Assembly (NCBI GenBank): GCA_000004695.1
Contig: CM000151.3
Coordinates: 4,736,001-4,800,000 of the forward strand
Direction: 5' to 3'
DNA length: 64,000 nt
Origin: Dictyostelium discoideum
Lineage: Eukaryota
Shown here: positions 269-53,982 of the stretch, in pieces
Position numbering within the stretch: the stretch's first letter is position 1
How the letters are laid out: every line of letters begins with the position of its first letter
Translations under genes and position numbers: made by a program
Notes under the pieces: generated by a model
What the model saw: the letters and a program-made list of their open reading frames with translations, nothing else
Databases searched by the model: none
What the model was told of the DNA's origin: nothing

Positions 269-346
269 AATTCTTGTGATTTTTTTTTTTATTTTTTTTT
301 AAAAAAAAATTAAAAAATTAAAATAAAAAAAAAAATCACAAGAATT
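269..346. repeat. Imperfect A/T hairpin with GC-containing clamps (AATTCTTGTGA...TCACAAGAATT).
   Basis: The inverted repeat is ttcttgtgattttttttttt at 271-290 and aaaaaaaaaaatcacaagaa at 325-344. Confidence 0.7.
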
Positions 347-13132: not shown

Positions 13133-16100
13133 ATGGAATATAATGAAATATTATTTTGGAAAGTATTTCATAATAAATTTATATTTAATATTATAATTGA
13201 ACAAATTTCAAATGATCAATTAGAGTATGAACGTATTGAATTATATAAAATTGGTAATAGAATTAAATTTAAAGATATTCAATCATTGAAATTAATTGTA
13301 TCAAAAAAACAATTTGAATTATTAAAATGTAAATTAGAACATAATGATTTCATTTTATATAATAGAGAATCAATTGATCAATTAATACATTATGCACCAA
13401 TTGAAATAATAAAATTATTCATAGAGAAATATAAAATCAAACAACAAGATCCGCAATTAGATAAATTGAATGTAATGATTGATTTAGTACTCCATAGTAT
13501 AAAAAATAATAATTTAGAATGTTTAAGATATTTTTTAATTGAATTACAATTACCAGTTGAAAGAACTGCATTTGAATATACCTTAAAAGAGAAATCAATT
13601 GAATTCATTGATTTAATATTAAACTCGAATCAATTTAAATTGGAAGAATCTACAAGGAAATTCTGTTTAAAATTAATATCAAACAATTCAAGAAATTTCA
13701 ATGACCTAATTGAATATGTAATTTATAAAAGACCAGAATTAAATTATTTTACAACTAAATCAATAGTTGAAAATTTTAATCAACAAAAATTATCAAAATA
13801 TCCAGGTTATTTAAATACTCCACAAATTTTAGATTTTTTTTTATTTTATAAAATCAAATCAAAAGAAACAAAATTAAAATTATTAGAAATGGGTTGTGTT
13901 TCAACGGTTAAACCAGAATTTATATATTCAAATAAATTAAAACCAACCAATTGGAAAGATTATGATGAAGTTGAATTTTACCTTTTTATAATTTTAAAAC
14001 TTGGTGAACTTGAGAAATGTATAGCAAAAGATACAACTTTAGCAATTATTAGGAATGAATTTGAAGGGATTAAAGATTGTTCAAATTTAAAAACACAGGA
14101 TAAATGTAAAAAGTTACATGAATTAATAATAATTAAATTATTTCCTTATTTCTCATCACATATTTATAGAGATTATTTTGAACTTTATGATCAACCTATA
14201 CCAAATTCAGATTTTCTTTTCACTTTTCAAATTACATTTTCAACATTTAGTGTAAATGGGTTAAATTATTTATTAGATTTAAAAAAAAAAAAAAAATCAA
14301 TTCAAACCACAACAACAACAACAACAATTTATATTAATGAAATTACAAAAAAAATAGATACAAATAATGAAAAAGAAGTTTTAGAATTTTTAAAAATATA
14401 TTTTAAATCAAAACATTTACTACCAGAACTTAATAAAGTTTCAATTGATAATATGTTTTTACATGTATTAAATCATTGTTCAATTGAAACTTTAAATGAA
14501 ATTTTAAAATTAAAACCATCATCACAAGATGATATAATTAAAGGATTTTTAAGTGGTTTTTTACCAGATAATAATTTTCAATCATCAAGAGAAAAAGCAG
14601 ATGAATTTATTAAAACAATTCATATTAATAAAGATAATGATCGTTTTATTTGGTTCTCTGAGAAATTAGTAAAGAAATTATCATCAACTGCAGAAAGAAA
14701 TTTTATTAATTATAAATGTTTAAATTATTTGAATATTTCAACGAAAAATCATGTAGACTTTTTAATTGAAAATAAACCAGAAACTGTAATAATTCCATTA
14801 GTTAAAAAATATTTTGAAATTGAAAGTTTAGAATTAATAAATTATTTTGAAAAGAAATTAAATCAATCGAAACCATCAGCAAATCATTATTATTATCTTT
14901 ATTTTAAATCATTATTTAATGGTGATTTTAAAACTTTTCAAGAAATTGATGATATTAAAAATTTAAAATTGGAATTCCAATCAGCTGATTTCAAATCAAT
15001 TAAAATTAATGACCCATTGTTGATTGATAAAGTCATTGAAAATATTAATAAAAGTAATCTTAAAAGTTTAACAAGTGATTCAAAAATTAAACTTTTTAAA
15101 TTCCTATTAAAACAAAATGATGAAAAATTACAATCAAAAGTAATTGGAAGCCTACAGTTTAATTTATTCCCATTAGAATCAATGTTAGTTTTATTAGATA
15201 ATATATTGGATGTAAACATTGAAGCTTCAAATGCAATCATTAATAATTTAGTAATCAATGGTGAATTTGAATTATCATTATTGGTTTTAGCTGTAAATCA
15301 ATTTGAAAAGAGTAGATTATTTATAATTTATAAATCTTTGGATGGTAAACTAATTAAAAATGGATATAATGCAAAAGATAAATTAATACCATTTATTAAA
15401 TCGTTATTTAATAAATTGGAAGCAAATTTAAATGATGACTTTCCATCACTTTCAGATAGTCAAGAAATTCAATTCATCTTCTCTTATCTTTACAAATTAT
15501 TAATACAATGCGATGATATAACATTAGACTTAATAAATAGTGTACGTCAATTTTATTTAAGCAATGATTTAATCATTACCGATGATTTGTTTAGTTTATC
15601 TTGTTATCTTTCATTAAGATCTTATCAATTCATTAAATATTTATCTGCTATGAAAATAAGATTAAATAATGGTATTTTCTTTTTAAATGGTGTTTGGAAT
15701 TTTGAATTCGATAGTTCTGATCAAAATTATACACTAGACTTCAATTTAATGTTAAAAGAAAATAAAGTACCCATTGATAAAGATTTCTTTGATGTAATTT
15801 ATCAAACAACCAAATCTAAAGATAACAACTTTGATTTCTTTAAGAAAATTGTATTCCACAAATTAAGAAATTTAATGATTGAATTTCAAAGATTGCCTCG
15901 CCCACTTCCAATTGCTGTTGAAGTTAATTTGTTTATAGAGTTAAATAGAGCAGATCTGGTATTGGAATTAGCAGAGATAGAAGTTTCACTAAATAAACCA
16001 TTCCCAATTGAAACCGTTGGTGGTTTTATGAACATTGCTACATTGGATCAACTTAAACAATTAATTTCATTAATAGGACAAACTGAATCAAAACGTATTA

Positions 16101-16672
16101 AATATCTATTTTTAAAGAATTCCATTATTTCCCGTAAATTTGATTTCATTGATTACTTTTTGAAAGAATCAATTTTATTCATTGAAGAATTGACAAAAGG
16201 TTCATTAGATAGCAATGAATTTAAATTTTTCAAAGAGATCTTAGCTTCAAATGATATTGAATTGGTTGAATATTTATTAAAAAATTATAGAGGTCAAGAT
16301 TTTCAGACAATCGCCACCACCACTACCTCGATTACCACCACTACTACCAATCCTCAATCTGTTGTTATAACAGGATTAATTGATTTATTTAAAGACTTTC
16401 AATATTCTCAAAATTTATATCATAATAATTTTCAAGTTACAATGGATAATGGTTTAATCGATATGTTTAATCTCTTATCTCGACATTTTCTATTCGTTCC
16501 AAAAAAAGATAATATCCTTCACACAATTAGACAAGGAAGATTTAAATTGGTTGATTATTTATATAAAAATGATTATTTCGAACATCTTGGTGAAGAAACT
16601 ATAACCTCTATTAATGATTTTGTAAAAGATCAATATCCATATGATTATTTTTCTTTAAAAAAAAACAAATAA
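13133..16672 (+). CDS. Hypothetical lineage-specific protein, 1179 aa, single exon.
   Basis: An uninterrupted ATG-initiated ORF with typical Dictyostelium codon usage, a TAA stop, and internal poly-T (TTTTTTT) and poly-K/N tracts. The N-terminus (EILFWKVFHNKFIFNIIIEQI) resembles the conserved N-terminal motif shared by many Dictyostelium-specific gene families. I recognise no characterised domain. Confidence 0.65.
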   Translation: MEYNEILFWKVFHNKFIFNIIIEQISNDQLEYERIELYKIGNRIKFKDIQSLKLIVSKKQFELLKCKLEHNDFILYNRESIDQLIHYAPIEIIKLFIEKYKIKQQDPQLDKLNVMIDLVLHSIKNNNLECLRYFLIELQLPVERTAFEYTLKEKSIEFIDLILNSNQFKLEESTRKFCLKLISNNSRNFNDLIEYVIYKRPELNYFTTKSIVENFNQQKLSKYPGYLNTPQILDFFLFYKIKSKETKLKLLEMGCVSTVKPEFIYSNKLKPTNWKDYDEVEFYLFIILKLGELEKCIAKDTTLAIIRNEFEGIKDCSNLKTQDKCKKLHELIIIKLFPYFSSHIYRDYFELYDQPIPNSDFLFTFQITFSTFSVNGLNYLLDLKKKKKSIQTTTTTTTIYINEITKKIDTNNEKEVLEFLKIYFKSKHLLPELNKVSIDNMFLHVLNHCSIETLNEILKLKPSSQDDIIKGFLSGFLPDNNFQSSREKADEFIKTIHINKDNDRFIWFSEKLVKKLSSTAERNFINYKCLNYLNISTKNHVDFLIENKPETVIIPLVKKYFEIESLELINYFEKKLNQSKPSANHYYYLYFKSLFNGDFKTFQEIDDIKNLKLEFQSADFKSIKINDPLLIDKVIENINKSNLKSLTSDSKIKLFKFLLKQNDEKLQSKVIGSLQFNLFPLESMLVLLDNILDVNIEASNAIINNLVINGEFELSLLVLAVNQFEKSRLFIIYKSLDGKLIKNGYNAKDKLIPFIKSLFNKLEANLNDDFPSLSDSQEIQFIFSYLYKLLIQCDDITLDLINSVRQFYLSNDLIITDDLFSLSCYLSLRSYQFIKYLSAMKIRLNNGIFFLNGVWNFEFDSSDQNYTLDFNLMLKENKVPIDKDFFDVIYQTTKSKDNNFDFFKKIVFHKLRNLMIEFQRLPRPLPIAVEVNLFIELNRADLVLELAEIEVSLNKPFPIETVGGFMNIATLDQLKQLISLIGQTESKRIKYLFLKNSIISRKFDFIDYFLKESILFIEELTKGSLDSNEFKFFKEILASNDIELVEYLLKNYRGQDFQTIATTTTSITTTTTNPQSVVITGLIDLFKDFQYSQNLYHNNFQVTMDNGLIDMFNLLSRHFLFVPKKDNILHTIRQGRFKLVDYLYKNDYFEHLGEETITSINDFVKDQYPYDYFSLKKNK

Positions 16673-17352
16673 AAAACTGTTTAAAAAAAAAAAAAATTTT
16701 TTGCTTTTGTTTTTTGTTATTATTCGAAATTATCTGATGAAAATTGTCCAAGTAATTACTTTGGATTTTCAATATCTCATATGAATGTATCTTGATTTGA
16801 CTAGTAATAACAATAATAGTAATATTTGAGTTAATAAATTGAAAAATAATCAAAAATAAGGTTATCATTAGTTTGATGTGGCAATAATTATTATTATTTT
16901 TTTAAATTAAATTGTTAAACATATTTAAAAAAAAAATAGTTGAACTCATTTTAATACAAATATTAATAAAAAAAAAAAAAAAAAAAAAAAAAAACAGGAT
17001 GGTTGTGTTTTAATTTTTTTTTAAATTAATTATTGTAAAATAAATAGTATTAAATTAATAAAATAAATTTATAAAATAAAAATAATTAAATTAATTAATT
17101 AAATAAATAAATTAAATAATATAAATCCTTCTAGAGTATACCACTTCCATTGCAAAACAATGAATTAAATTTCTTTATTTTCACTTTTTTTTATTAAAAA
17201 TATTATTTGCATTTATTAATGAATTGATTCTATTCCAATCAAATTAAAATTATACTTTTCAAATAAACTCTATAAACGATAGTAATATTTTTAATAAAAA
17301 AAGAAAAAAAAATTTATGTTGTTTTAATTTAATAAAGTTAGCAATAATTAAA

Positions 17353-17354
17353 AT

Positions 17355-17385
<31 letters not shown>

Positions 17386-17417
17386 TTTGTTTGTTTATTT
17401 ATTTATTTATTTATTTA
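17353..17417. repeat. (ATTT)n microsatellite, ~15 units.
   Basis: atttatttatttatttatttatttatttgtttgtttatttattt... Confidence 0.9.
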
Positions 17418-17475
17418 TGTAATCTGAAACCATGGTTGACCAGTAGTTGTAATGGTGATTGTGTTGTTGGATATG

Positions 17476-17488
17476 TTTGTTTGTTTGT

Positions 17489-17520
<32 letters not shown>

Positions 17521-17552
17521 GCTGTTGTTGTTGTTGTTGTTGTTGTTGTTCT
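17476..17552. repeat. (TTG)n microsatellite, ~25 units, intergenic.
   Basis: gtttgtttgtttgttgttgttgttg...ttgctgttgttg... Confidence 0.9.
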
Positions 17553-17558
17553 TGTGTT

Positions 17559-17696
17559 CGTACACTGTAAAAAAAAAAAAAACTTCACACAAGACCCAAA
17601 GGTCTAAAAAAATGATTAATAGTTTGGGCCAGATCATATTATGTTGAAATTAAAGATATTTTTATCTTTTTTTTTTTTTTTTTTTTACAGTGTACG
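17559..17696. mobile_element. MITE-like unit of 138 bp bounded by perfect 24-bp terminal inverted repeats (CGTACACTGTA + A-run / T-run + TACAGTGTACG).
   Basis: CGTACACTGTAAAAAAAAAAAAAA lies at 17559-17582 and its exact reverse complement at ~17667-17696. The internal sequence contains short palindromes (AGACCCAAAGGTCT). It directly follows the (TTG)n microsatellite. No clear target-site duplication is visible. Confidence 0.3.
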
Positions 17697-17940
17697 AAAT
17701 TGGTAGAAAAAAATCACTTTTTAAATTTCCCAAAAACCAAAAAAAAAAAAATAAAAAAAAAATAAAATAATTGATCAAGATATTTTTATCTTTTTTTTAT
17801 TTTTGTTATTATGATCAAAAATTAATTTTATTTTTTTCTTTTTTATTTTTTTTTAGTTTTTTGAGAAATTCGAGCAGTGGGAACGCTTTTCTATCTGTTG
17901 TCCTAAAACCCTAAGTTTCAAAGAATTTTGATTTTAATTT

Positions 17941-18010
17941 CCTTTTATTTTTTATTTTTCCAATATTAGAAACTTAATATTGGAAAAATAAAAAATAAAA
18001 AATAAAAAAA
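17941..18010. repeat. ~27-bp-arm palindrome/hairpin in an intergenic spacer.
   Basis: TTTTATTTTTTATTTTTCCAATATTAGAAACTTAATATTGGAAAAATAAAAAATAAAA has one mismatch in the arms and a 4-nt loop (AAAC). Confidence 0.7.
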
Positions 18011-18212
18011 TATTATATGCTCTGGTCAAATTTTTCAAAAAACTAAAAAAAAAACTAAAAAAAAAATAAAAAAAAAATAAAATCAATTTTTGGTCATACA
18101 AAATTAAAAATTAAAAACACTTTTTTTTTTTTTTTTTTTCGTTTCACAATTTCTTTTCTTTAAAAAAAAGGTAATAAAAATAAATAAAGAATTTAATATA
18201 TATTAATTAAAA

Positions 18213-18847
18213 ATGTCACTGATATTGGATATAAATAAAAATTCAACTGAAAATAAAAACAATCTTGAATCAACAGGAATATTATTTCAAAAAGTTTGGG
18301 AGAATGCAGTGATAAAAAATAAAATTTTATCATTTTTAAAAGTAAAGACAACAACATCTTTGTTATTACCAAATTTTAGAGGTAACAAGATTAAATTATC
18401 AGTAGAAGGATTTATGCCAAAAGATGATATGTCAAATAAAACACAAGTATTAAAAGAAAATAAATATTCCAAATTCGATGAAATGGTTAATGTATCCAAG
18501 ATGATCAGTTATGGCAATAAAGAATTATTAAAATACAAAGTATCAATAAATTATGAAGACTTACATTTCTCAAATAATGATATACATATCATACTTCAAA
18601 ATTTTAAAGATGAAAATTACGATTATCAATTCTATCAAGATCTTTTTAATAATTATCCATTTTATTTCACTTTAGACGAAACAAAAAAGAATAAACTATT
18701 AAATAAAATAATTGTAAACGATAATTTATTAGCATTAAAAGTTCTCATCAATCAACTCAACCCAATCATTACATACAATAAATTTATAATGGCAGTTATA
18801 AAAGGATCTATAGATATTGTAAATTATCTTTCAAATTCAACTACTAC

Positions 18848-18909
<62 letters not shown>

Positions 18910-19760
18910 TTAAATTAAATGAAGATGATATTATTAATGTATTCAATTTTATTTTTTTCGATGAAACTGAAGATATGGATTTTGATCCTGATTTAGAGGA
19001 GGAAGATTATTTTCCTCCTTTAGTGGAAACAAAATACCCAATAATGGATTATAGATTTTTTCCATTGGATAATATAGAGATTGTCTTTTTAAAATCGATA
19101 CGCGATAAAAAAAATATGATTCAATGTTTAATGAATTTAGGTGTAAAGCTTCCAACAAAGATTAAAGAACCAATTAAATATTTATTTGATTTATCCATGT
19201 GTGAAGATCTTTGTTTTTTCCCTAATATTACATTAAAATGGCTAATTGAAATATATGAATGTATTCATTATGTATCACCATTGGTTTCTAATGAATCATT
19301 ATCAGAGGCAAATAAAAAGCTTTCAGATTTATTATATTCAAAAGAAAAGTTTGAATCAATAAAGAAATTATTCAGTGAAATCGAATTAAATTCAACTTTA
19401 AACCGTTTAGATTCAAGAGAAGAAATCAAACAAATGTATAAAATACTCACAATGGTTTCTCATATTCATCCTATGGATTACCAAATTAGATATGAAGAAA
19501 TAAACAATGGATTCAAAAGTAATTTTAAACTTATTTTTAAATATAGTGACCCAACATATCAAAAATTATTTATTGAAAATTTTATTAGCTATATAGAAAA
19601 TAATGATTTTTGTGATGAAAGCTGTAATGAAACTTATTTCTTGGTCAATTCACTTATCGATAATGATAAAGTAGAATATTTAAAAATGGCTTTAAATTCA
19701 TTCGATTATTCAGATTCGTATTCGGATTCAGATGTTATTATCAATATTAAATCATTTTAA
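18213..19760 (+). CDS. Hypothetical lineage-specific protein, 515 aa, with a 22-residue poly-N tract. Possible paralogue of the 13133..16672 gene by N-terminal motif.
   Basis: An ATG-initiated ORF. The N-terminal segment LFQKVWENAVIKNKILSFLK parallels LFWKVFHNKFIFNIIIEQI in the upstream gene. A coding (AAT)n repeat lies at 18845..18905. The stop overlaps the start of the next ORF. Confidence 0.55.
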
Positions 19761-20751
19761 AACTAAATATCCAGAAGATTATTATAGTCAATGTAGTAAA
19801 TTAGATTTCAAGGAAAATCAAAAACTATTTTCAAATGATTTCATTTGTAACAACTATCAAGATTTTAAAAAGAATATATTAAAATGTAATAAAGATAACC
19901 CATTAAATTTCTTTCCAGTTTCCAAAAATTTGAAATTAAATCAATTCGTTGCAATTTTAGAATCAACACCACCTCAACAAAAGTATTCATGTTTATTAAA
20001 TCCAGAAATTTTGGCATGGATCTATGAGAATAGAGAATGTGATTTAAAATCTGGTAGATGTATACAACCAAATTTTGTAACATTATTCAGATATTTATTT
20101 TACACCAACCAATTTTCAAAAGCATTAAATGATATTGATTATTTTAATAATCCTGGTGACCTTGATTATTTTAATTTTAAAAATAATCATAATGATGAAA
20201 AAATCCATTCTATTGAAGAAATAATAAAAGCCATGAAATCAAAAAAAGAATTCAAACAACAACAAATTGATGAATTTAATACAATTTTTAAAATAACACT
20301 ATTATTCATAATTCCAGGTTTAAAAAAACTTATAAAATCAATAATCAAATCTAATAATTTTAATTATTTAGAAATACTTTACAACTACATTAATAACACC
20401 AGTAAAGAAAAGAAATTTGAAAATCTATTGGAAGAATTAAAAGATTTAATATTTCAGTATATTAAAAAGTACAATAAAATCAGTTGTTTAAAATTTTTAT
20501 TGAAATTAGATCAAGATAATAAGTCATTCTTTTCTGAAGATTTGTTAATATTTTTTTACAAAGAAATAAATACAAATTATTCAATAAATCAAGAAATTTC
20601 AAATATTTTAAAAATTTATTTCAATTTTAACATTGAAGATAAAATAAAAGAAGAAGATGAAAAAGAAGAAGAAGAAGAAGAAGAAGAAAAAGAAGAAGAA
20701 GAAGAAGAAGAAGAAGAAGAAGAAGAAGAAGAAGAAGAAGAAGAAGAAGAA

Positions 20752-20783
<32 letters not shown>

Positions 20784-20814
20784 CGATGATGATGACGAGA
20801 TGAAGGAGGATTAA
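19732..20814 (+). CDS. ORF of 360 aa ending in a ~50-residue poly-E/D tail. It is either a separate gene or the frameshifted continuation of the 18213..19760 ORF.
   Basis: The ORF starts at an ATG embedded in GATGTT, 29 nt before the TAA of the preceding ORF. No GT..AG intron explains the +1 shift. The (GAA)n microsatellite 20649..20795 encodes the EEEE... tail, followed by ...DDDDDEMKED*. Confidence 0.4.
20649..20795 (+). repeat. Coding (GAA)n microsatellite of ~48 units, giving a poly-Glu tail.
   Basis: gaagaagaagaa... with a few aaa/gag interruptions, inside ORF 19732..20814. Confidence 0.9.
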
Positions 20815-21027
20815 AAAGAGATGACAAAGTCTAAAAAGAAGATTAATTTTATTTAAAAAGTATTGTTTTTAACATCTCAGTGAATAAGCTATAACCTCAA
20901 TTAATCAATGTTCAATAATCCAGTTTCATTTTTAAAAAAATAAAAAAAATAAAATTAATATTAGTTCGAAATTATCTATATATGCCATATGGCAGATGAT
21001 ATTGTTGTGGTGAGTTTTCACATTAAA
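20803..21027. repeat. Copy 1 of a ~230-bp direct duplication covering the last codons, stop and 3'UTR of the 19732..20814 ORF.
   Basis: ...AAGGAGGATTAAAAAGAGATGACAAAGTCTAAAAAGAAGATTAAT...GAATAAGCTATAACCTCAATTAATCAATGTTCAATAATCCAGTTTC...ATTAGTTCGAAATTATC...TATGCCATAT... recurs at 21456-21690 with ~90 % identity. Confidence 0.8.
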
Positions 21028-21059
<32 letters not shown>

Positions 21060-21074
21060 TTTTAAAAACAATTT

Positions 21075-21345
21075 ATTAAACCAAAACAATAAAAAAACTA
21101 TTTATAAACAGTTATTTGATTGTTTTAAGATTAAATAACAATTTACTTTAATAAACCATATATTAAACAAATAATCACTTGTTGAGTTTGCAAATAAAAA
21201 AAACAAAAAATTGAAAAATTAAAAAAAAAAAAAAAAAAAAAAAAATAGACCAAACTTGAAAGTAAATTGTTATTTAATTTTTAAACAATCAAATAACTGT
21301 TTAAAAATAGTTTTTATCTTGGAAAAATGGTTTGTGATTGTTTTT
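21075..21345. repeat. Long imperfect inverted repeat (hairpin arms of ~60-80 bp with a ~100-bp loop) lying between the two duplicated copies.
   Basis: The left arm 21095-21151 (AAAAACTATTTATAAACAGTTATTTGATTGTTTTAAGATTAAATAACAATTTACTTTAA) is the reverse complement of 21256-21315 (TTGAAAGTAAATTGTTATTTAATTTTTAAACAATCAAATAACTGTTTAAAAATAGTTTTT). The outer extension CCAAAACAAT pairs with ATTGTTTTTGG. Confidence 0.75.
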
Positions 21346-21455
21346 GGATTTAATGCTTCAAAAAAAAAAATAATAAAAAAAAAACAATCAAAAAATGAAT
21401 ATGGGTAACTATGAAAAAAATATTTTGATAAAAAAAAAAAAAGAAAAAGAAATGG

Positions 21456-21690
21456 AGAAGGAGGATTAAAGAGAGATGACAAAGCCTACAAAGAAGATTA
21501 ATATAAGTTATTTAAAAAGTATTATTTTTTAACATATCAATGAATAAGCTATAACCTCAATTAATCAATGTTAAATAATCCAGTTTCTTTCTTTAAAAAA
21601 AATAAAAAAAATAAAAAAAATAAAATTAATATTAGTTCAAAATAATCATTGTATGCCATATATCTATGGTAGATAATATTATTCATAACT
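21456..21690. repeat. Copy 2 of the duplicated gene-3'-end/3'UTR segment. It retains a ...EKED* mini-ORF and stop.
   Basis: GGAGAAGGAGGATTAAAGAGAGATGACAAAGCCTACAAAGAAGATTAAT...GAATAAGCTATAACCTCAATTAATCAATGTTAAATAATCCAGTTTC... Confidence 0.8.
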
Positions 21691-21825
21691 TTTTTTTTAA
21701 ATTATCTATTTTAATTTTAGCAGATTCTTTTTCTTAAAAAAAAAAATAAATAAATAAAAATTAACATATGGATAAGTTTCTTTTTATAAAAAATAATAAC
21801 AAATTATTATTTATTTTTTTATTTT

Positions 21826-24145
21826 TTAATTTTCATTTTCATCTTCATCAGAAAAATCAACATAATCATCTAAAAATCCTGGTGCTGGTTGTTGAGTACC
21901 TTGAGTAGCTGCTAATTGTCGTTCTCTTTGAATGGATGGATCATTCCATGGTAATAAAGAATGAAGGAAATTTAAAACTGGATTGGCAGGACCAGTGTAA
22001 TCTGGATTCTCTTGTAATAAAGGTTCTAAAGGTTGTTGTTGTTGATGTTGTAAGTTTTGTTGTTGTTGTTGTTGTAATTGTCTTAATTGTTGTTGGACTC
22101 TTCTTTGTTGTTGTTGATTTCTTTGATGAATTTGGAAACCTTGACCAATACCACCTCTTCTAAGATGTTGTGGTGGTGCTTGATTTGGATCACGTTGTGG
22201 TAGGATATCTCTGAAACCTTCAGCATGCATTGCTTCGATAATGTCTGGTGTTAATCTATTGATAACGTCAGAGTATTCTGATAGAACTAAATGATCGAAG
22301 ACCTCTTGATTCACAGTTTCATACTCTGCTTTGATTGAATCACTCAATTGTTTTACCATTGGATGTTTGGCGGCTACTTTATCTAATACAATGATAACAT
22401 TTGATTTTAACCAATCTAAAATTTCAGGAGTTTGCCAACATTGATAATTTCTCTCGACAAACAAAGTCACCAAATGATCGATACGTTTCTCCAATGGGTC
22501 ATCCTTAAAGAATGGATCATTTTCAAGTGTTATTATTTTACCATTCTTTGGAATTGAGAAATTAGTTTTCAATTTCTCCAACAATGGTTGAAGCACCATT
22601 GGGAATGATATTAAGGCCTTTTGTAAGAGTATATCACTTGATTCTTCAACACTTGATGATTTCGATGATGATGTTGATGTTGATGTTGATGTTGTTGTTG
22701 TTGATTTCTCTCTCTCCAAATGATACATTGCCAAAGCAGCAGAATAACAAAAGTTTGGTAACAATGATAGATCGCCTTGATTGGTTGGTGTGATAGTTTT
22801 TAACTTTGTGAATAAATCTACCAAGAATCTATACTGTTTGGATCTAATGGAGTAGTAATCGATGATTAAACGTACATACAATGGATCAGAGTAATCCCAA
22901 GTTAATAAAATTTTACAAAGTTCTAATGCGGTTCTATGACATGCCCTTCTACCAATGATTTGAATAAATCTAAAGATTGCCAAGAAACATGATTTATTTT
23001 GGTCATGTCTATATTCGAATCTACAATTACCATTGAGTGGATTAAAGAGATGATGGAATACATTCTCAAATGCAAATACTGCCATCTCTACGAAATCACC
23101 CGCTTTTGAATAATCTGCAGTTTGTAAACAAACTTGACCCAACTGTAATAATGAATCAATATGATATGGATGATATCTAATAATTTCAACTAAACTCATT
23201 GGGTCATGAGTTGTTAATGCTAAATAAAATTCTTCTTGAATATTTGAATATGTTTGACCCCATTTAATTTTAAAATAATTTATACCATCTAAAGATTGTT
23301 GTTGTGATTTTAATTTTGGTGATACTGTATTGGTTGTAGTAGTAGTTGTAGTTGTGGTTGTTGTTGCATTTGTTGGTGATGATGGTACTTTATCATCATT
23401 ACATATTTCCATTACCATAAATCCTCCCATGACATCAGGCCATTCAGGTTTTGGTTGAACAAATATATAGTTTTTCTTTTTAAAATGATGTACACTCTTT
23501 TTCTTTTGACCTTTAATATCTGAACTCTTACAACCAAATAATTTTTTCAATTCGTTATCTGGGTTTAAATTAACTGTATTAATTTTAAATAATTCTCTAA
23601 ATTCTTTATCTTTAATCTCAATTCTATATAATATTATTTATTTTGTTAAATACATAATAATATAAAATTAGTAAAATATTATTATTAAAAAAAAAGTAAA
23701 AAAAAAAAAAAAAAACATACTCTGATAATATTATTGGTGGCGATGATTTTTCAATCTCATTTAATTCAAGTTCATCTTTTTCTTGTTGTTGTTGTTTTTT
23801 CTTTTGTTGTTGTTTTTTCTTTGCTTGTTTTTTTTTGGATGCTTGTTGTTGTTGCTTTTGTTTTTGTTGTTTTGAAGATAATTGTTCTTTAGCTTGAGGT
23901 TTCTCTTTTTCAATTTCTTCTTCTTCTTCTTCTTCTTCTGATTCTTCTGATTCAGAATCTTTTTTATCTTCATTTTCATCTTGGTCACTTTTGTCGTCAT
24001 CTTCGTCTGATAAGTTTAACATTGAAAATTTTGGTTTTACACTATTAACAACAACAACAACTTTTTTTTCACTTCCCTCATCCGAACTACTATTTACATG
24101 TTGTACGTTAATATGTTGTTTCTTTTTTAATGCTTTTGTTGACAT
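21826..24145 (-). CDS. TCF25 / Rqc1 family protein (ribosome quality control complex subunit), 740 aa. Two exons: 24145..23721 and 23623..21826.
   Basis: Exon 1 (MSTKALKKKQ..., then an acidic S/E/D stretch and a basic K/Q stretch) ends ...IILS+ga. The donor is GTATGT at 23720..23715 and the acceptor ..atatAG is at 23625-23624. The phase-2 join gives ...LNEIEKSSPPIILSEIEIKDKEFRELFKINTVNLNPDNELKKLFG, matching the human TCF25 N-terminus (MSRRALRRL..., ...RIEDSTGLNR...HLNPDTELKRYFG). Exon 2 holds the conserved core (...IFRFIQIIGRRACHRTALELCKILLTWDYS-DPLY...). The intron is 97 bp. Confidence 0.85.
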
Positions 24146-24641
24146 TATTTGTATTTTTATTTATCTCTCTATCTCTTTCTCTCTATCTCTATGAATTTAT
24201 TTAAAAAAAAAAAAAAAAAAATGAAAAAAAAAAAATGAAAAAGAAAAAGAAAAAAAAAAAAAAAAAATGAAAAAAAAAAAAAAAAAAAGTACTCTTTTGA
24301 GAATTTGTTGTGAAATTAAAATTTGATTTATTTATTAAAATAGAAATAAGAAATCACCAAAAAAAATAATATCACTAAAAGATATTTTTTAAACAAAAAA
24401 ATTAAAAAATAATTTTTTTTTTTTTTTTTATTATTATTCACTGGAAAAATTTATTAATTTCCCCAATCTCTTATTTTTTGATTTAATCAATTTTTAATTG
24501 AAAAAATTTCTTAAAATGTGACAAAAACTATTAAAAAATAAGAAATTGATGAAATTTATTAATTTATAATAAAATTTATTAATTTCTTTTTTTTTTCCAG
24601 TGATATCAATATTAATAATATTAATTATCAATTATTATTTA

Positions 24642-48887: not shown

Positions 48888-50574
48888 TTATTCTACATCA
48901 GTTAATCTAAAAACATAAACATATGGTGGATAATCTTGTGGTGCAACCATTGGAATGTTTAGTGTAATACCAGGTTTTGTTGATTCAATTGGTAATGATA
49001 CTTCAACACCTTTTTCACCTTTTAAACCTAATAAAGTTGCTTCTGTTTTATTATTACCAATTGGATCACTTAAAATTAAAACACCATCATCTGGTAATTC
49101 AAATACAAATGCATAAACATTACCATTGGTAGTATTTGTAGTATACCAGATGTTAAAAGTCATATTTTGAACTCTCCATGGTGAACTACCATAAATTGAT
49201 TCAGAATTAATTGATAACCAATTACCAATCTCTAATAAACGGTCAACCATATTATTTGGAATTGTACCTTGAGCATCTGGGCCTACATCCAATAAGAAAT
49301 TACCACCACATGCAACCGTTGTTACCAAATCAATTATTAACTCTGTAGCATTTTGATAATCAGTAGCCTGTTCATATTCATCATAACCATATGAATATCC
49401 AATGGTTGCACAATTTTCCCATTTATGTGATTGAAGTTTATATGGATTAAAATGGTCAGCACCAGTATAAAATCCACCATTCTTATCTCTACATTCACTT
49501 CCCCATCTATCATTTACAATTACTGTATCTTTAACACTACTATTTGTATATAACCAACTTAAAAATTCTGTTGATTTCCAATAATTACTTAATTGCATCC
49601 AATCACCATCTGCCCAAATTAATTCAGGTTCTAAAAAATTAAAAATTAAAAAAAAAAAAAAAAAAAAAATTATATTAATAAATATTTTTTAATTAATTAA
49701 TTAATTATATAATAAAAAACCACATACCATATGTTGTAACAATATCTTTTAATTGTTTCATTAAAATTTCATCAACATAAACTTGAGTTGTTGGGTTTTT
49801 ACCAGTTTCAGCATCTGCAAGATATAATGGATTAAACCATTCTATTTTTTTTTTTTTTTTTAAAAAAAAAAACAATATTAGTATTAAAATTAATAAATAA
49901 TAAATTTAATAAAATATTTACCAAATAAAGAATGATAAAGACCCATATGTAAACCCATGTTTTTAACAGATTTTGTTAACTCACCAACGATATCAATACC
50001 AGGACCAGTTTCAACAGAATTCCAATTCCATGATTGTTCACTATTCCAAAGGGTATAACCTTCATGATGTTTTGATGTTAAAACTACATATTTTGCACCA
50101 GATTTTTCAATTATTGATGCCCATTCATTAGCATCGAATAAACGACAATCAAATCTTGAAACGAAATCTTGATATGTAAAATTGGCTCCAAACTCTTTTT
50201 CATGATATCTTTGTGTTGCACCACCATCAGAACTTGGATTTTTTAATGTCCACCAATACCATTCTGCATATCCTCCATTTGCAAATGCTGGTACACTATA
50301 AATTCCAAAATGAATAAATATTCCAAACTTTACATCATCATACTATAATATATTATTATTATTATAAATTTTTTAAAAAAAAAAAAAAAAAATATTAATA
50401 AAAAGTAAAAAATAATAATTATAAAAATAATAATAATAATAATAATAAAAATATAATAATATTTACCCAACCTGGTAATGGTCTTGAATTAATTTGGTCC
50501 CATGTTGGTCCATACTGTTGAGATTTAATTAAATTTAATATTAACAATATAAAAAAAATGATTATCATCTTCAT
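48888..50574 (-). CDS. alfA: Alpha-L-fucosidase (glycoside hydrolase family 29), secreted, 461 aa. Four exons: 50574..50467, 50342..49922, 49841..49728 and 49630..48888.
   Basis: Exon 1 (MKMIIIFFILLILNLIKSQQYGPTWDQINSRPLPGW) ends at GTAAAT at 50466. Exon 2 (YDDVKFGIFIHFGIYSVPAF...EWYWW...KYVVLTSKHHEGYTLWNSEQSWNWNSVETGPGIDIVGEL...LYHSLF+g) ends at GTAAAT at 49921. Exon 3 (EWFNPLYLADAETGKNP...IVTTY+g) ends at GTATGT at 49727. Exon 4 (EPELIWADGDW...FLSWLYTNSSVKDTVIVNDRWG...CGGNFLLDVGPDAQG...). The protein is colinear with human FUCA1 throughout (YDPTWESLD, KFGIFIHWG, LTSKHHEGFTLW, YYSLFEWFHP, GGNLLMNIGP). The introns are 124, 80 and 97 bp. Confidence 0.85.
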
Positions 50575-50726
50575 TTTTTTTATTTTTTATTACTTTTTAT
50601 ATTATTATTACACCAATACTTGTAATCTAAAAGATGTGAAAAAACAAAAATAAAAAAATATAAAAAAAACAAAAACAAACCCCTTTTTTTTTTTATTAAT
50701 AATATTTTTATTTTTATATTTATATT

Positions 50727-50764
<38 letters not shown>

Positions 50765-51016
50765 GATCAGTTATACAAATATTTTTTTGAGAATGCCCCA
50801 ACAAAAATAAAAATAAAAATTAAAATAAAAATAAAAATAAAAATAAAAAAAACCCCCACCCCTACCCTATCTAATTAAATTTACAAAAAAAAAAAAAACA
50901 AAATCTATCTAACCAATCATGTTTTTTAAACCCTTTTTTTTACAATTTTTGGGCCAAATATTAAATTAAAAAAAAAGATGAGAAAATTGGATGATTGGGT
51001 AAAATAATATCAGATA

Positions 51017-51066
<50 letters not shown>

Positions 51067-51154
51067 GTTACCTTGAAAGAGGGAATAAAATAATTTATTT
51101 ATTGAATATTTTTGGTCCAGTAAGGAGTCAAAAGCTAAATTTTCAAATAAAACT

Positions 51155-51347
51155 AACCTCCTCTTCCCCCATAAAGAAGGAGTTTGAACGAGCAAATACG
51201 CGATCTCCTTGAAGAGCCGGACTCACGTATAACCCTCGCCCAAGGAGGAGATGTCTAACCATCTTTTAGCCCTAACCTCTTCCGGAAGAGCTCCCCACCC
51301 TCAGCCCCCGGATAATTTGATTTGATTTGATACAGTATTTTTTTTTT
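51155..51347 (+). other. GC-rich (~50 % GC) island of ~190 bp ending in a T-run, directly 5' of the repeat cluster. Candidate structured ncRNA, or the unique terminal part of the repeat element.
   Basis: AACCTCCTCTTCCCCCATAAAGAAGGAGTTTGAACGAGCAAATACGCGATCTCCTTGAAGAGCCGGACTCACGTATAACCCTCGCCCAAGGAGGAGATGTCTAACCATCTTTTAGCCCTAACCTCTTCCGGAAGAGCTCCCCACCCTCAGCCCCCGGATAATTTGATTTGATTTGATACAGTATTTTTTTTTT. It has internal complementarity (CCTCCTC/GAGGAGG; the palindromic CTTCCGGAAG). The base composition is highly atypical for Dictyostelium intergenic DNA. Confidence 0.25.
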
Positions 51348-51354
51348 CAGTAAA

Positions 51355-52346
51355 TATCCTCACCTAAAGACCACCACATGGACTCATAACCACACACCTT
51401 CACCCAAAGACCACCACATACTGACGCATACCCACCCATCCAAACTCCATAAAATTGATACCTAAAAATACTGAATTAAAAATAATTGATTATTATTCTG
51501 TTTTTGCTTTTTATTATTTTATTTTTTTCTTTTTATTTATAATTATATATAATTCTTACCCTATAATCATAAAATATTAAATAGTTACCAATTGACCACC
51601 ACACCTAATACAAATGATACATTAATTAATTAATTTTTTTTTTTACAACACATACCTTCACCCAAAAACCACCACATGTTGACGCATACCCACCCATCCA
51701 ACCCCATTTGCTTTATACCTAAAAATACTGAATTTAAAATAATTAATTATTATTTTTTTCTTTTTATTTATAATTATATAATTCTTACCCTATAATCATA
51801 AAATATTAAATAGTTACCATATTACTACCACACCTAATACAAATGATTTTTTTTTTTTTTTTTTTCACAACAATCATCATTTGTATTAGGTGTGGTAGTA
51901 AATTGGTAACTATTTAATATTTTATGATTATAGGGTAAGAATTATATAATTATAAATAAAAAGAAAAAAATAATAATTAATTATTTTAAATTCAGTATTT
52001 TTAGGTATAAAGCAAATGGGGTTGGATGGGTGGGTATGCGTCAACATGTGGTGGTTTTTGGGTGAAGGTATGTGTTGTAAAAAAAAAAATTAATTAATTA
52101 ATGTATCATTTGTATTAGGTGTGGTGGTCAATTGGTAACTATTTAATATTTTATGACTGTAGGGTAAGAATTATATATAATTATAAATAAAAAGAAAAAT
52201 ATAAAATAATAAAAAGCAAAAACAGAATAAAAACCAATTATTTTTAATTCAGTCTTTTTAGGTATCAATTATATGGGGTTTTGGTTTTTGGGTGAAGGTA
52301 TGCGTTGTAAAAAAAAAAATTAATTAATTAATGTATCATTTGTATT

Positions 52347-52393
<47 letters not shown>

Positions 52394-52626
52394 TTTTCAC
52401 CACACACACCTTCACCTAAAGATCACCACATGTTGACGAATACCCACCCATCCAACCCCATTTAATTGATACCTAAAAATACTAAATTTAAAATAATTAT
52501 TATTCTGTTTTTGCTTACTATTATTTTATTTCTTTTCTTTTTATTTATAATTATATAATTCTTACCCTATAAAACATAAAATATTTATGACTTACCTTAA
52601 AGTTCATCAATTGACCTCATACAAAT

Positions 52627-52680
<54 letters not shown>

Positions 52681-52900
52681 CACAACACATACATTCACCT
52701 AAAGACCACCACATGTTGACGAATACCCACCCATCCAACCCATATGCTTTATACCTAAAAATACTAAATTTAAAATAATTTATTATTATTCTGTTTTTTC
52801 TTTTTATTCATATGATAAAAATATTTAATCTACCACCTATAAATTAAATTAAAAATACCTACCTTGAAAGACCACTCACCGTATGACGCACACACATAAT
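51355..52900. repeat. Cluster of at least 6 copies (full and truncated, both orientations) of a 200-280 bp non-coding interspersed element with a conserved GC-rich ~50-nt 5' core. Unclassified; a possible MITE/SINE-like Dictyostelium repeat.
   Basis: Direct copies start near 51391, 51651, 52392 and 52681. Inverted copies lie at 51876-52078 and 52089-52305, with a fragment at 52313-52346. The shared core is CCTTCACC(C/T)AAAGA(C/T)CACCACAT(G/A)(T/C)TGACG(C/A)ATACCCACCCATCCAA(C/A)C, followed by ..TACCTAAAAATACT(G/A)AATT.AAAATAATT..ATTATT.CTGTTTTTGC...TTATTTATAATTATATAATTCTTACCCTATAA..ATAAAATATT.A..., and in some copies ...ACCACACCTAATACAAATGATACATTAATTAATTAATT. The copies are separated by poly-T/poly-A runs (up to ~70 T at 52345-52392 and 52628-52680). 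Confidence 0.8.
51651..52078. repeat. Near-perfect palindrome: two ~200-bp copies of the element in inverted orientation around a T-run at ~51845-51866.
   Basis: The sequence 51651-51845 equals the reverse complement of 51876-52078 except for 2-3 substitutions (e.g. ACCATATTACTACC vs ACCAATTTACTACC). Confidence 0.85.
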
Positions 52901-53143
52901 AAATATAATTATTATTATTAATTTTTTTTTTTAATTAGTTTTTTATTTTTATTTTTATTTATGTTTTTATTTTTATTCTAATTTAATATTATTTAAATAA
53001 TAAAGAAAAAGGTGAATTAAGTGTATTTCTAAAATTCTATTACTCTCTATCACAATATTTATTTGTTTGCTATAAAATAAAAATAAATAAAAATATAAAA
53101 AAAAAAAAAATTGAAACATTTTTTTTTCCAAATTTGAACACAC

Positions 53144-53175
<32 letters not shown>

Positions 53176-53516
53176 AATTTAATAAATTTATTTATTCATT
53201 ATTTTTAAAAAAAGACATATATTTTATTTGGAAACACCATTATTATATTCTTTATTGAATTCTCCAAGAAAAAAAAAAAAAAAAAAAATTAAGTACGGTA
53301 GTGAATAAATTTATTTTTTAATTTTTAAAATTTGTTTTTTCAATAATTAAATAAAGTTGAGATAATTGATCAAGATCTGTGATATGAATACAATGTTGAG
53401 ATCTATAATCTACATATTTATTTCTTTGAAGATGTTTCAAAGTGTAATAGTAAACCATCTGGAGTGATTTCGCAAGATTTAATATTTCAAAAGTAGAAGA
53501 CCATCTGAATGAGTAG

Positions 53517-53982
53517 TTATTCCTTATTTGTTTGTTTAACAAGGACAATACGAAGATTTGTTATTAAGGTGATATAATTCTTTACACTACCACCACCACC
53601 ACCATTATTGAAATAAATGATATAGAGATGGGAATTTTTGAATCTACCCTTGAAAGTTGTTTCCAAAATGTAGTGACCCTCTGATTGTTCGTGGAAATTA
53701 TATTCAACCAAAAGATTATCAGTGCCAAATAAACGTGGTGGTTCCGATAAGAATGGATTCTCCAATACAATGCATTCAAACATAATGGCGTTCTATCTAA
53801 ACCAATTAGGTCAATTAATGATACACCAATTCTTGGTAATGATAATTGTAAATCCAATTTACAATTTTCAACACAGTTTGTGATAAATATGATGATGAAT
53901 CATCCTTTGGTTGATCATAATTATTATTATTACTATTATCATAAGATAATAGTAATACACATATTGGTCCATCAACTTTCAT
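53517..53982 (-). CDS. Possible small two-exon gene (about 131 aa) of unknown function; alternatively a decaying gene fragment. Exons 53982..53863 and 53792..53517.
   Basis: An ATG at 53982 opens MKVDGPICVLLLSYDNSNNNNYDQPKDDSSSYLSQTVLKI, ending at a GTAAAT donor at 53862. The acceptor gatAG at 53794-53793 joins in phase 0 to NAIMFECIVLENPFLSEPPRLFGTDNLLVEYNFHEQSEGHYILETTFKGRFKNSHLYIIYFNNGGGGGSVKNYITLITNLRIVLVKQTNKE*. The 70-bp intron is less A/T-rich than usual. A further ORF (53318..53548) overlaps the end in another frame. No recognisable domain. Confidence 0.3.

Follow-up and report, generated by a model that had tools for sequence, protein, structure and literature searches.

What made the palindromes that crowd a single intergenic spacer of Dictyostelium discoideum, and do they mark a transposon, an element with a function, or a history of local mutation? 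The window, meaning the whole 64-kb stretch of DNA that was analysed (G+C along it, 10–35%), was placed by the 1179-aa product of 13133-16672, which is identical to XP_644252.1/DDB_G0274219 of D. discoideum AX4 chromosome 2. This gene is called gene A here and its downstream neighbour gene B; the spacer between them is 1.54 kb long and holds all palindromes under study. The two genes had been described as paralogous in the first-pass annotation, and no paralogy was detectable (gene A versus gene B by BLASTP, E = 1.9). The spacer features which that annotation had listed are all present, with small corrections to positions and lengths, and are arranged as follows.

13133-16672, plus strand: gene A (DDB_G0274219), the 5' neighbour of the spacer.
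17353-17418, plus strand: (ATTT)16.5 microsatellite, 3' of gene A, from TRF and alignment.
17474-17493: (TGTT)5.
17489-17555: (TTG)22.3 microsatellite.
17559-17696: the 138-bp unit, with perfect 24-bp arms CGTACACTGTA(A)13.
17557-17582, plus strand: left arm of the 26-bp inverted repeat, TTCGTACACTGTA(A)13.
17673-17698, plus strand: right arm of the 26-bp inverted repeat, (T)13TACAGTGTACGAA.
17654-17673, plus strand: first copy of AGATATTTTTATCTTTTTTT, in which AGATA/TATCT form a mini-hairpin and a T-run follows.
17778-17797, plus strand: second copy of AGATATTTTTATCTTTTTTT.
17943-18000, plus strand: perfect hairpin, arms 17943-17968/17975-18000, 6-nt loop.
18121-18212, plus strand: T19 tract and A/T-rich leader just 5' of the gene B ATG, kept in all relatives.
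18213-20814, plus strand: gene B, with one intron and its ATG at 18213.

Complementarity of the unit's arms runs 2 bp further than had been noted (TT/AA), giving perfect arms of 26 bp with the pattern TTCGTACACTGTA(A)n...(T)nTACAGTGTACGAA. For the duplicated 20-mer AGATATTTTTATCTTTTTTT, the position given at 17654 was right and the one at 17781 was not, the second copy starting at 17778; the hairpin assigned to 17941-18010 is real, with arms of 26 nt instead of 27 at the positions listed above. The TIR cores had also been called the only GC-containing bases nearby, which is incorrect, as G/C occurs at 17420-17470, 17583-17640 and 17868-17925 as well. The stretch at 18121-18212 is likely the putative core promoter and 5' leader of gene B.

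That the dyad symmetry exceeds chance was borne out. The 16-mer TIR core, with two or fewer mismatches allowed, was expected 0.09 times in the window and found twice, a count of two being reached in 0/100 shuffles; the unit folded as DNA at −30.6 kcal/mol (z = −6.7; −6.3 to −9.5 across folds), and the folding of the hairpin is given below. Perfect inverted repeats were scanned for with complex arms (at least 16 nt, at least two G/C, at least eight non-homopolymer bases, loop of at most 300 nt), and 15 were found in the 64-kb window against 0.1 in block-wise dinucleotide shuffles (~150-fold). These complex repeats fall into about seven places of the window, and A:T homopolymer repeats occur throughout; palindromes are a property of the whole window, and the spacer is not special in holding them. 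A tRNA scan returned none.

Look-ups with gene A, both exact and by homology, led to the equivalent locus in six more assemblies, namely a D. discoideum strain (L001), two assemblies labelled D. discoideum in which the identity of the gene A protein is just 95% (L002 and L003), two of D. cf. discoideum (L004 and L005), and one of D. citrinum (L006). Between L001 and AX4 the unit does not differ across 142 nt, and identity over an adjacent 1.2-kb stretch is 99.7%. In L002 and L003, gene A is followed by several gene-B paralogues in tandem (B1, B2 and B3 in L002); copy number in the gene B family varies between assemblies that bear the D. discoideum label. Of the L002 paralogues, B3 is the closest to AX4 gene B, with 95% identity against 85–87% for B1 and B2, and is by this measure its orthologue. 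AX4 17760-17990 matches, at ~93% and without inversion, the DNA that precedes L002 B3, and the left part of the AX4 spacer together with the unit aligns with the gene A–B1 spacer of L002/L003, where (ATTT)n occupies the same place and is longer in both. Downstream of gene A, L005 has retroelements and L006 is without synteny, and for both the spacer comparison was uninformative. Three Logan contigs (L007–L009) stop ~315 bp past gene A, short of the unit.

Set against these loci, the palindromes were probably made in place by template switching in a rearranged, partly dead spacer. The spacer would be composed of DNA flanking gene A on its 3' side, what is left of the last exon of a lost small gene, and the upstream region of gene B, with poly(A)/poly(T) runs that would make imperfect inverted repeats very common in it; a polymerase switching template between nearby imperfect repeats would copy one arm from the other and so make the pair perfect. 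Documented effects of template switching include homogenised repeat arms, inverted spacers and new hairpins (PMC8604942, PMC13100816, PMC10710096).

The clearest case is the hairpin at 17943-18000. Fifteen AX4-specific bases at 17954-17968 (ATTTTTCCAATATTA) match the ancestral 17975-17989 exactly in reverse complement, and this string, the reverse complement of the adjoining TAATATTGGAAAAAT, is present only in AX4 and the near-identical L001. Five independent non-AX4 copies, found upstream of L002 B1 and B3 and of all three L003 B copies, share a non-hairpin state and read ...TTTAGTTTTT(TT)AAAGAAACTTAATATTGGAAA, or more fully CCTTTTATTTTTTT(TT)AGTTTTT(TT)AAAGAAACTTAATATTGGAAA, where AX4 and L001 read ...TTTTATTTTTTATTTTTCCAATATTAGAAACTTAATATTGGAAAAATAAAAAATAAAA. 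An ancestral 11-bp imperfect pair, TTTTATTTTTT/AAAAAATAAAA, has become perfect over 26 bp, and the orthologous sequences fold at −7.5 kcal/mol (z = −0.6, no better than shuffles) versus −21.2 kcal/mol in AX4 (z = −9.6). As the five non-AX4 copies include some that precede different gene B paralogues and none of the five has the hairpin, the polarity of the change is set, and on this comparison the hairpin is a polarised template-switch mutation of the AX4 lineage. It has the form of quasi-palindrome correction, in which changes clustered in one lineage reproduce nearby ancestral sequence in reverse complement; arm homogenisation is a further likeness to template-switch products, as is inversion of a spacer or loop, the mini-hairpin reading GATATTTTTATC in AX4 versus CATAAAAATATC upstream of L002 B1. 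Most documented cases of such mutations come from bacteria, yeast and primates, and the searchable literature held no report of them from Dictyostelium, for which the hairpin offers one cleanly polarised example.

The unit has a more involved history, and its event, unlike the template-switch mutations documented elsewhere, coincides with a deletion junction. Three further features define its surroundings.

17407-17564, minus strand: 3' relic (last exon) of a small predicted gene, truncated in AX4.
17583-17614, plus strand: junction segment CTTCACACAAGACCCAAAGGTCTAAAAAAATG, without a clean colinear orthologue in the alignments.
17615-17661, plus strand: conserved upstream block, whose first 20 nt are ATTAATAGTTTGGGCCAGAT.

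L002 and L003 each have an intact small gene predicted on the minus strand of the gene A–B1 spacer; its L003 product is P0012 (108 aa), for which a search of 5.8 billion proteins gave one other homologue and none from AX4. Residues 27-66 of the AX4 ORF at 17407-17637 (minus strand) align ungapped with residues 65-104 of P0012, its C-terminal 40 (E = 5e-7). This homology extends to 17559, the outermost base of the left TIR, and the (TTG)n tract at 17489-17555 is the antisense of the N/T-rich low-complexity coding tract of the relic exon. Right of the left TIR, AX4 lacks ~1.1 kb of the gene and the DNA upstream of it that L002 retains. Judged by this homology, the left half of what had been noticed in the spacer is the last exon of a dead gene.

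On the other side, AX4 17615-17760 is colinear with L002/L003 straight through the right TIR, at which L002/L003 read a T-run, A8-9 and GTAGAAACTGG where AX4 reads T20 and ACAGTGTACGAAATTGG (in the longer reading of the same site, T-run, A8-9, GTAGAAAC versus T20, ACAGTGTACGAAAT), and homology past the right TIR runs into GAAAYTGGT...TCACTTTTTAAATTTCCC. Because interior and right flank line up with DNA of relatives in which the TIR cores are missing, the unit is, as aligned, resident upstream DNA and no insertion. Within the conserved block, ATTAATAGTTTGGGCCAGAT is identical upstream of L002 B3 and of the second and third B copies of L003 and matches at 19/20 positions in a palindrome upstream of L002 B1; lying ~600 bp upstream of the gene B ATG, it may be a cis-regulatory motif, which would make it a candidate promoter motif for the uncharacterised gene B family. 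A reading of CCCAAA motifs as DUSE-like was also considered, and these do not appear to fit the DUSE consensus.

L002 has a palindrome of its own at the same place, between the small minus-strand gene and B1 (41-nt arms, 95% complementary, −33.5 kcal/mol), which is built from an inverted duplicate of the conserved block, and in L003 the left arm of this L002-type palindrome has been lost. The AX4 junction segment at 17583-17614 is possibly the decayed left inner arm of this older palindrome, intact in L002. Two lineage types carry the unit, and the closest comparators for its arms, the regions upstream of B1 in L002/L003, are ~75–80% identical. Relative to L002/L003, clustered changes beside the A-run and the T-run have left the two sides of the AX4 unit perfectly complementary: an A14/T20 pair is lengthened by 11–13 unique bases, each core being the reverse complement of the other.

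The arms of the unit were most likely perfected by the mechanism that made the hairpin, as the sequence comparison suggests, and the 26-bp arms would have become perfect after or during deletion of the small-gene body. The deletion would have placed the relic beside the A-run, and the right core ACAGTGTACG would then have been copied from the relic-derived left core. In minus-strand reading the left arm runs T-run, ACAG, TGTACG, which extends the relic exon and looks like its 3' splice site; the left core is TACAGTGTACGAACAC in AX4 versus TACAG-GTATAAACAC in L002, and an alternative match is the splice-acceptor region of the L003 exon, ...CACAG followed by TATCAACAC. Derivation of the left core from the relic gene is suggestive, at an estimated p of ~0.05 with two alternative homologous sites in the gene. 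Three histories fit the unit about equally, namely that the right arm was copied from the left, that the left arm is junction filler, or that an old palindrome was re-homogenised. Since the left core continues relic-gene sequence or matches its splice-acceptor region, the first of these is favoured, in which ACAGTGTACG would probably have been copied from the left core. Junction filler would resemble the templated insertions of polymerase-theta end joining or MMBIR/FoSTeS, in that the left arm lies exactly where the lost-gene homology ends and its 24–26 nt are the reverse complement of sequence ~90 bp away; unlike such insertions, the left core resembles the relic gene's own sequence, and so may be ancestral and not filler.

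The palindromes need no function to explain them and are probably mutational by-products of a known kind. That they are functional nonetheless, as mirrored cis-elements of a formerly bidirectional promoter or as precursors of hairpin RNAs or miRNAs, is unlikely. Such a reading could draw on the 20-mer ATTAATAGTTTGGGCCAGAT, which has a G/C-rich core, is identical upstream of the nearest relatives of gene B and forms an inverted pair in the L002 palindrome, on the fact that intergenic hairpins are most of the known D. discoideum miRNA loci (PMC6161686), and on the finding that new miRNA hairpins can arise by template switching (PMC10710096). Against this, the perfect arms are AX4-specific and absent in the orthologues, and L003 lacks one arm of the older palindrome, so the structure is not conserved; the stems are mostly A:T homopolymer; and neither Rfam nor published miRNA arms gave a match. 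The Rfam search returned 0 matches at gathering thresholds across the whole window, and in the spacer, with E up to 5 allowed, only chance-level matches with E > 2, and the 24 miRNA arms of PMC6161686 Table S1 gave 0 matches in the window at two or fewer mismatches.

A transposon origin, in which the 138-bp unit is a MITE or MITE relic that inserted with its 24-bp TIRs, possibly at TA or GTAC, is distinctly improbable. It would imply an empty site at which the relic exon is joined straight to GAAATTGG; in L004 the unit region has been removed by an independent, larger deletion, and that locus is not an empty site. The unit does have the shape of MITEs (e.g. Stowaway/Tc1-mariner-derived, TA TSD) and of Tdd-4/5, DDT and thug, as it is short, A/T-rich and non-coding, folds well, and is bounded by TIRs that are perfect over 24 bp, or 26 bp with TT/AA. 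If the element is trimmed, the TA or GTAC around it has the formal look of a TSD. No direct repeats of 2–11 bp were found at the unit boundary, and symmetric trimming yielded only CG, TA and GTAC, self-complementary strings that are inherent to any inverted repeat and that all lie within the longer palindrome; TA and GTAC were rejected as TSDs because complementarity continues outside them (CG, then TT/AA). The interior and right flank are colinear with relatives without TIR cores, and the interior, which is orthologous promoter DNA, holds the motif ATTAATAGTTTGGGCCAGAT that is conserved upstream of the gene B family, both unlike what an inserted MITE would show. The 64-kb window and ~140 kb of the six related loci yielded no further copy, so that a pair unique in the genome and lacking TSDs, the outcome that the first-pass annotation had named as refuting its MITE proposal, is what was seen within the ~205 kb of Dictyostelium DNA searched. 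The TIR pair and the single TIR gave 0 matches in two JGI metagenome scans, an uninformative result, as dictyostelid DNA is probably absent there. D. discoideum Tdd elements have 5-bp TSDs, TIRs of 260–297 bp and TGTNR ends (PMC2836005), all absent from the unit; for Tdd-4/5 (Ginger2) specifically, no 5-bp TSD was obtained at any trimming and the unit termini are TTCGTAC, not TGTNR. A review of D. discoideum transposons (PMC5633606) mentions no MITE family.

A related functional form, that a mirrored module persists as a remnant (ATTAATAGTTTGGGCCAGAT inverted-duplicated in a bidirectional promoter), that the perfect AX4 hairpins are newborn small-RNA precursors, or both, is very unlikely. It is highly improbable that the spacer is a replication origin or a selected structure-dependent element such as a cruciform-forming fragile or recombination site, as comparable palindromes occupy about seven places in the 64 kb, the structures are not kept between lineages, and the structural differences among lineages (deletions, an inverted segment, gene B copy number), which with the dense hairpin-forming inverted repeats of the spacer would speak for it, can be a side effect of unstable palindromes and no proof of a selected role.

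Among the three alternatives that had been offered for the spacer, the transposon relic is not supported, and the replication- or recombination-related structure came close, in the sense of template switching and local rearrangement and not of a functional origin. With template switching as the preferred source, MITE-like palindromes in a very A/T-rich genome can form locally, and shape alone is no ground for a transposon annotation; extended from this one 64-kb window, the result suggests that template switching may commonly produce the numerous perfect inverted repeats of D. discoideum spacers.

The right part of the spacer is bracketed by a longer, imperfect inverted repeat.

17821-17877, plus strand: left arm of the imperfect inverted repeat (57 nt, 81% complementary).
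17878-18021, unstranded: 144-bp segment between the 57-nt arms.
18022-18078, plus strand: right arm of the same repeat, pairing with 17821-17877.

The enclosed segment (17878-18021) has the opposite orientation upstream of B1 in L002/L003 and in L004, and the AX4 orientation upstream of L002 B3 and of the second and third B copies of L003. An AX4-specific inversion of 17740-18010 was considered and rejected, since AX4 gene B is orthologous to L002 B3 and the flip therefore separates paralogues. As in flip-flop inversion, a segment bracketed by an inverted repeat is found in both orientations; unlike flip-flop inversion, the flip separates paralogous copies instead of being a polymorphism at one locus, and it bears no sign of a programmed switch. 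Of the two small 20-mer hairpins, the first (17654-17673) lies where relatives read AAAGATAT and a T-run; the second (17778-17797) differs by 1 nt from the copy upstream of L002 B3, and in the copy upstream of L002 B1 the loop is inverted (CATAAAAATATC).

The gene-B locus was compared between the window (16673-23550) and two assemblies labelled D. discoideum, L002 (13553-23552) and L003 (13541-23540). Gene B is single in AX4, whereas two to three tandem paralogues are present in L002 and L003, both of which additionally carry a small minus-strand gene at this locus. Since gene A protein identity was only 95% for these assemblies, they may represent deep lineages or cryptic species. A segment of ~550 bp (window 16790-17342) was found only in AX4 and L001, a near-identical D. 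discoideum strain; in L002 and L003, sequence ending in TCCCATAT runs straight into (ATTT)n without this segment, and no homologue of it was found among the sequences compared. Downstream of gene A in L005, a D. cf. discoideum assembly, the interval 13580-24433 lacks the gene-B region and contains retrotransposon ORFs (RVT_1, RNase H, integrase), as well as a stretch resembling the 3' portion of a tRNA gene.

Located 450-850 bp upstream of gene-B family ATGs, the 20-mer ATTAATAGTTTGGGCCAGAT is perfectly conserved within A/T-rich DNA that is otherwise diverging, and is a candidate transcription-factor site. It was found at the following positions:
Window, 17615-17634
L002, 22321-22340
L003, 18363-18382 and 22256-22275

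At the other end of gene B, the 3' end and flank are duplicated as direct repeats of ~160-190 bp, bracketing a palindromic insert that holds nested perfect inverted repeats; L003 has one copy of the repeat, without the insert. In window coordinates, these features are:
20802-20990 and 21457-21661, direct repeats, 91% identical
21105-21125 and 21283-21303, perfect inverted repeat within the insert
21130-21149 and 21259-21278, perfect inverted repeat within the insert

Further small palindromes were observed. At window 269-346, a 24-nt loop separates the arms of a perfect 27-nt inverted repeat, AATTCTTGTGATTTTTTTTTTTATTTT, which is built like the palindromes of the gene A-gene B spacer, from a unique core and a T-run. 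The mini-hairpin GATA-TTTT-TATC (AX4 17779-17790) corresponds to CATA-AAAA-TATC upstream of gene B1 in L002 (15134-15145), and the inversion of the loop between the two is a further small template-switch-type signature.

Far exceeding every palindrome of that spacer in size, a perfect inverted repeat with 253-bp arms and an 84-bp spacer (core 51567-51819/51904-52156) was located at window 51400-52600, within an array in which a G/C-containing repeat of ~230 bp recurs in both direct and inverted orientation, and its surroundings are ORF-free over ~3.9 kb (49598-53517). Possible readings are a complex repeat or transposon relic and, alternatively, a palindromic duplication of recent date.
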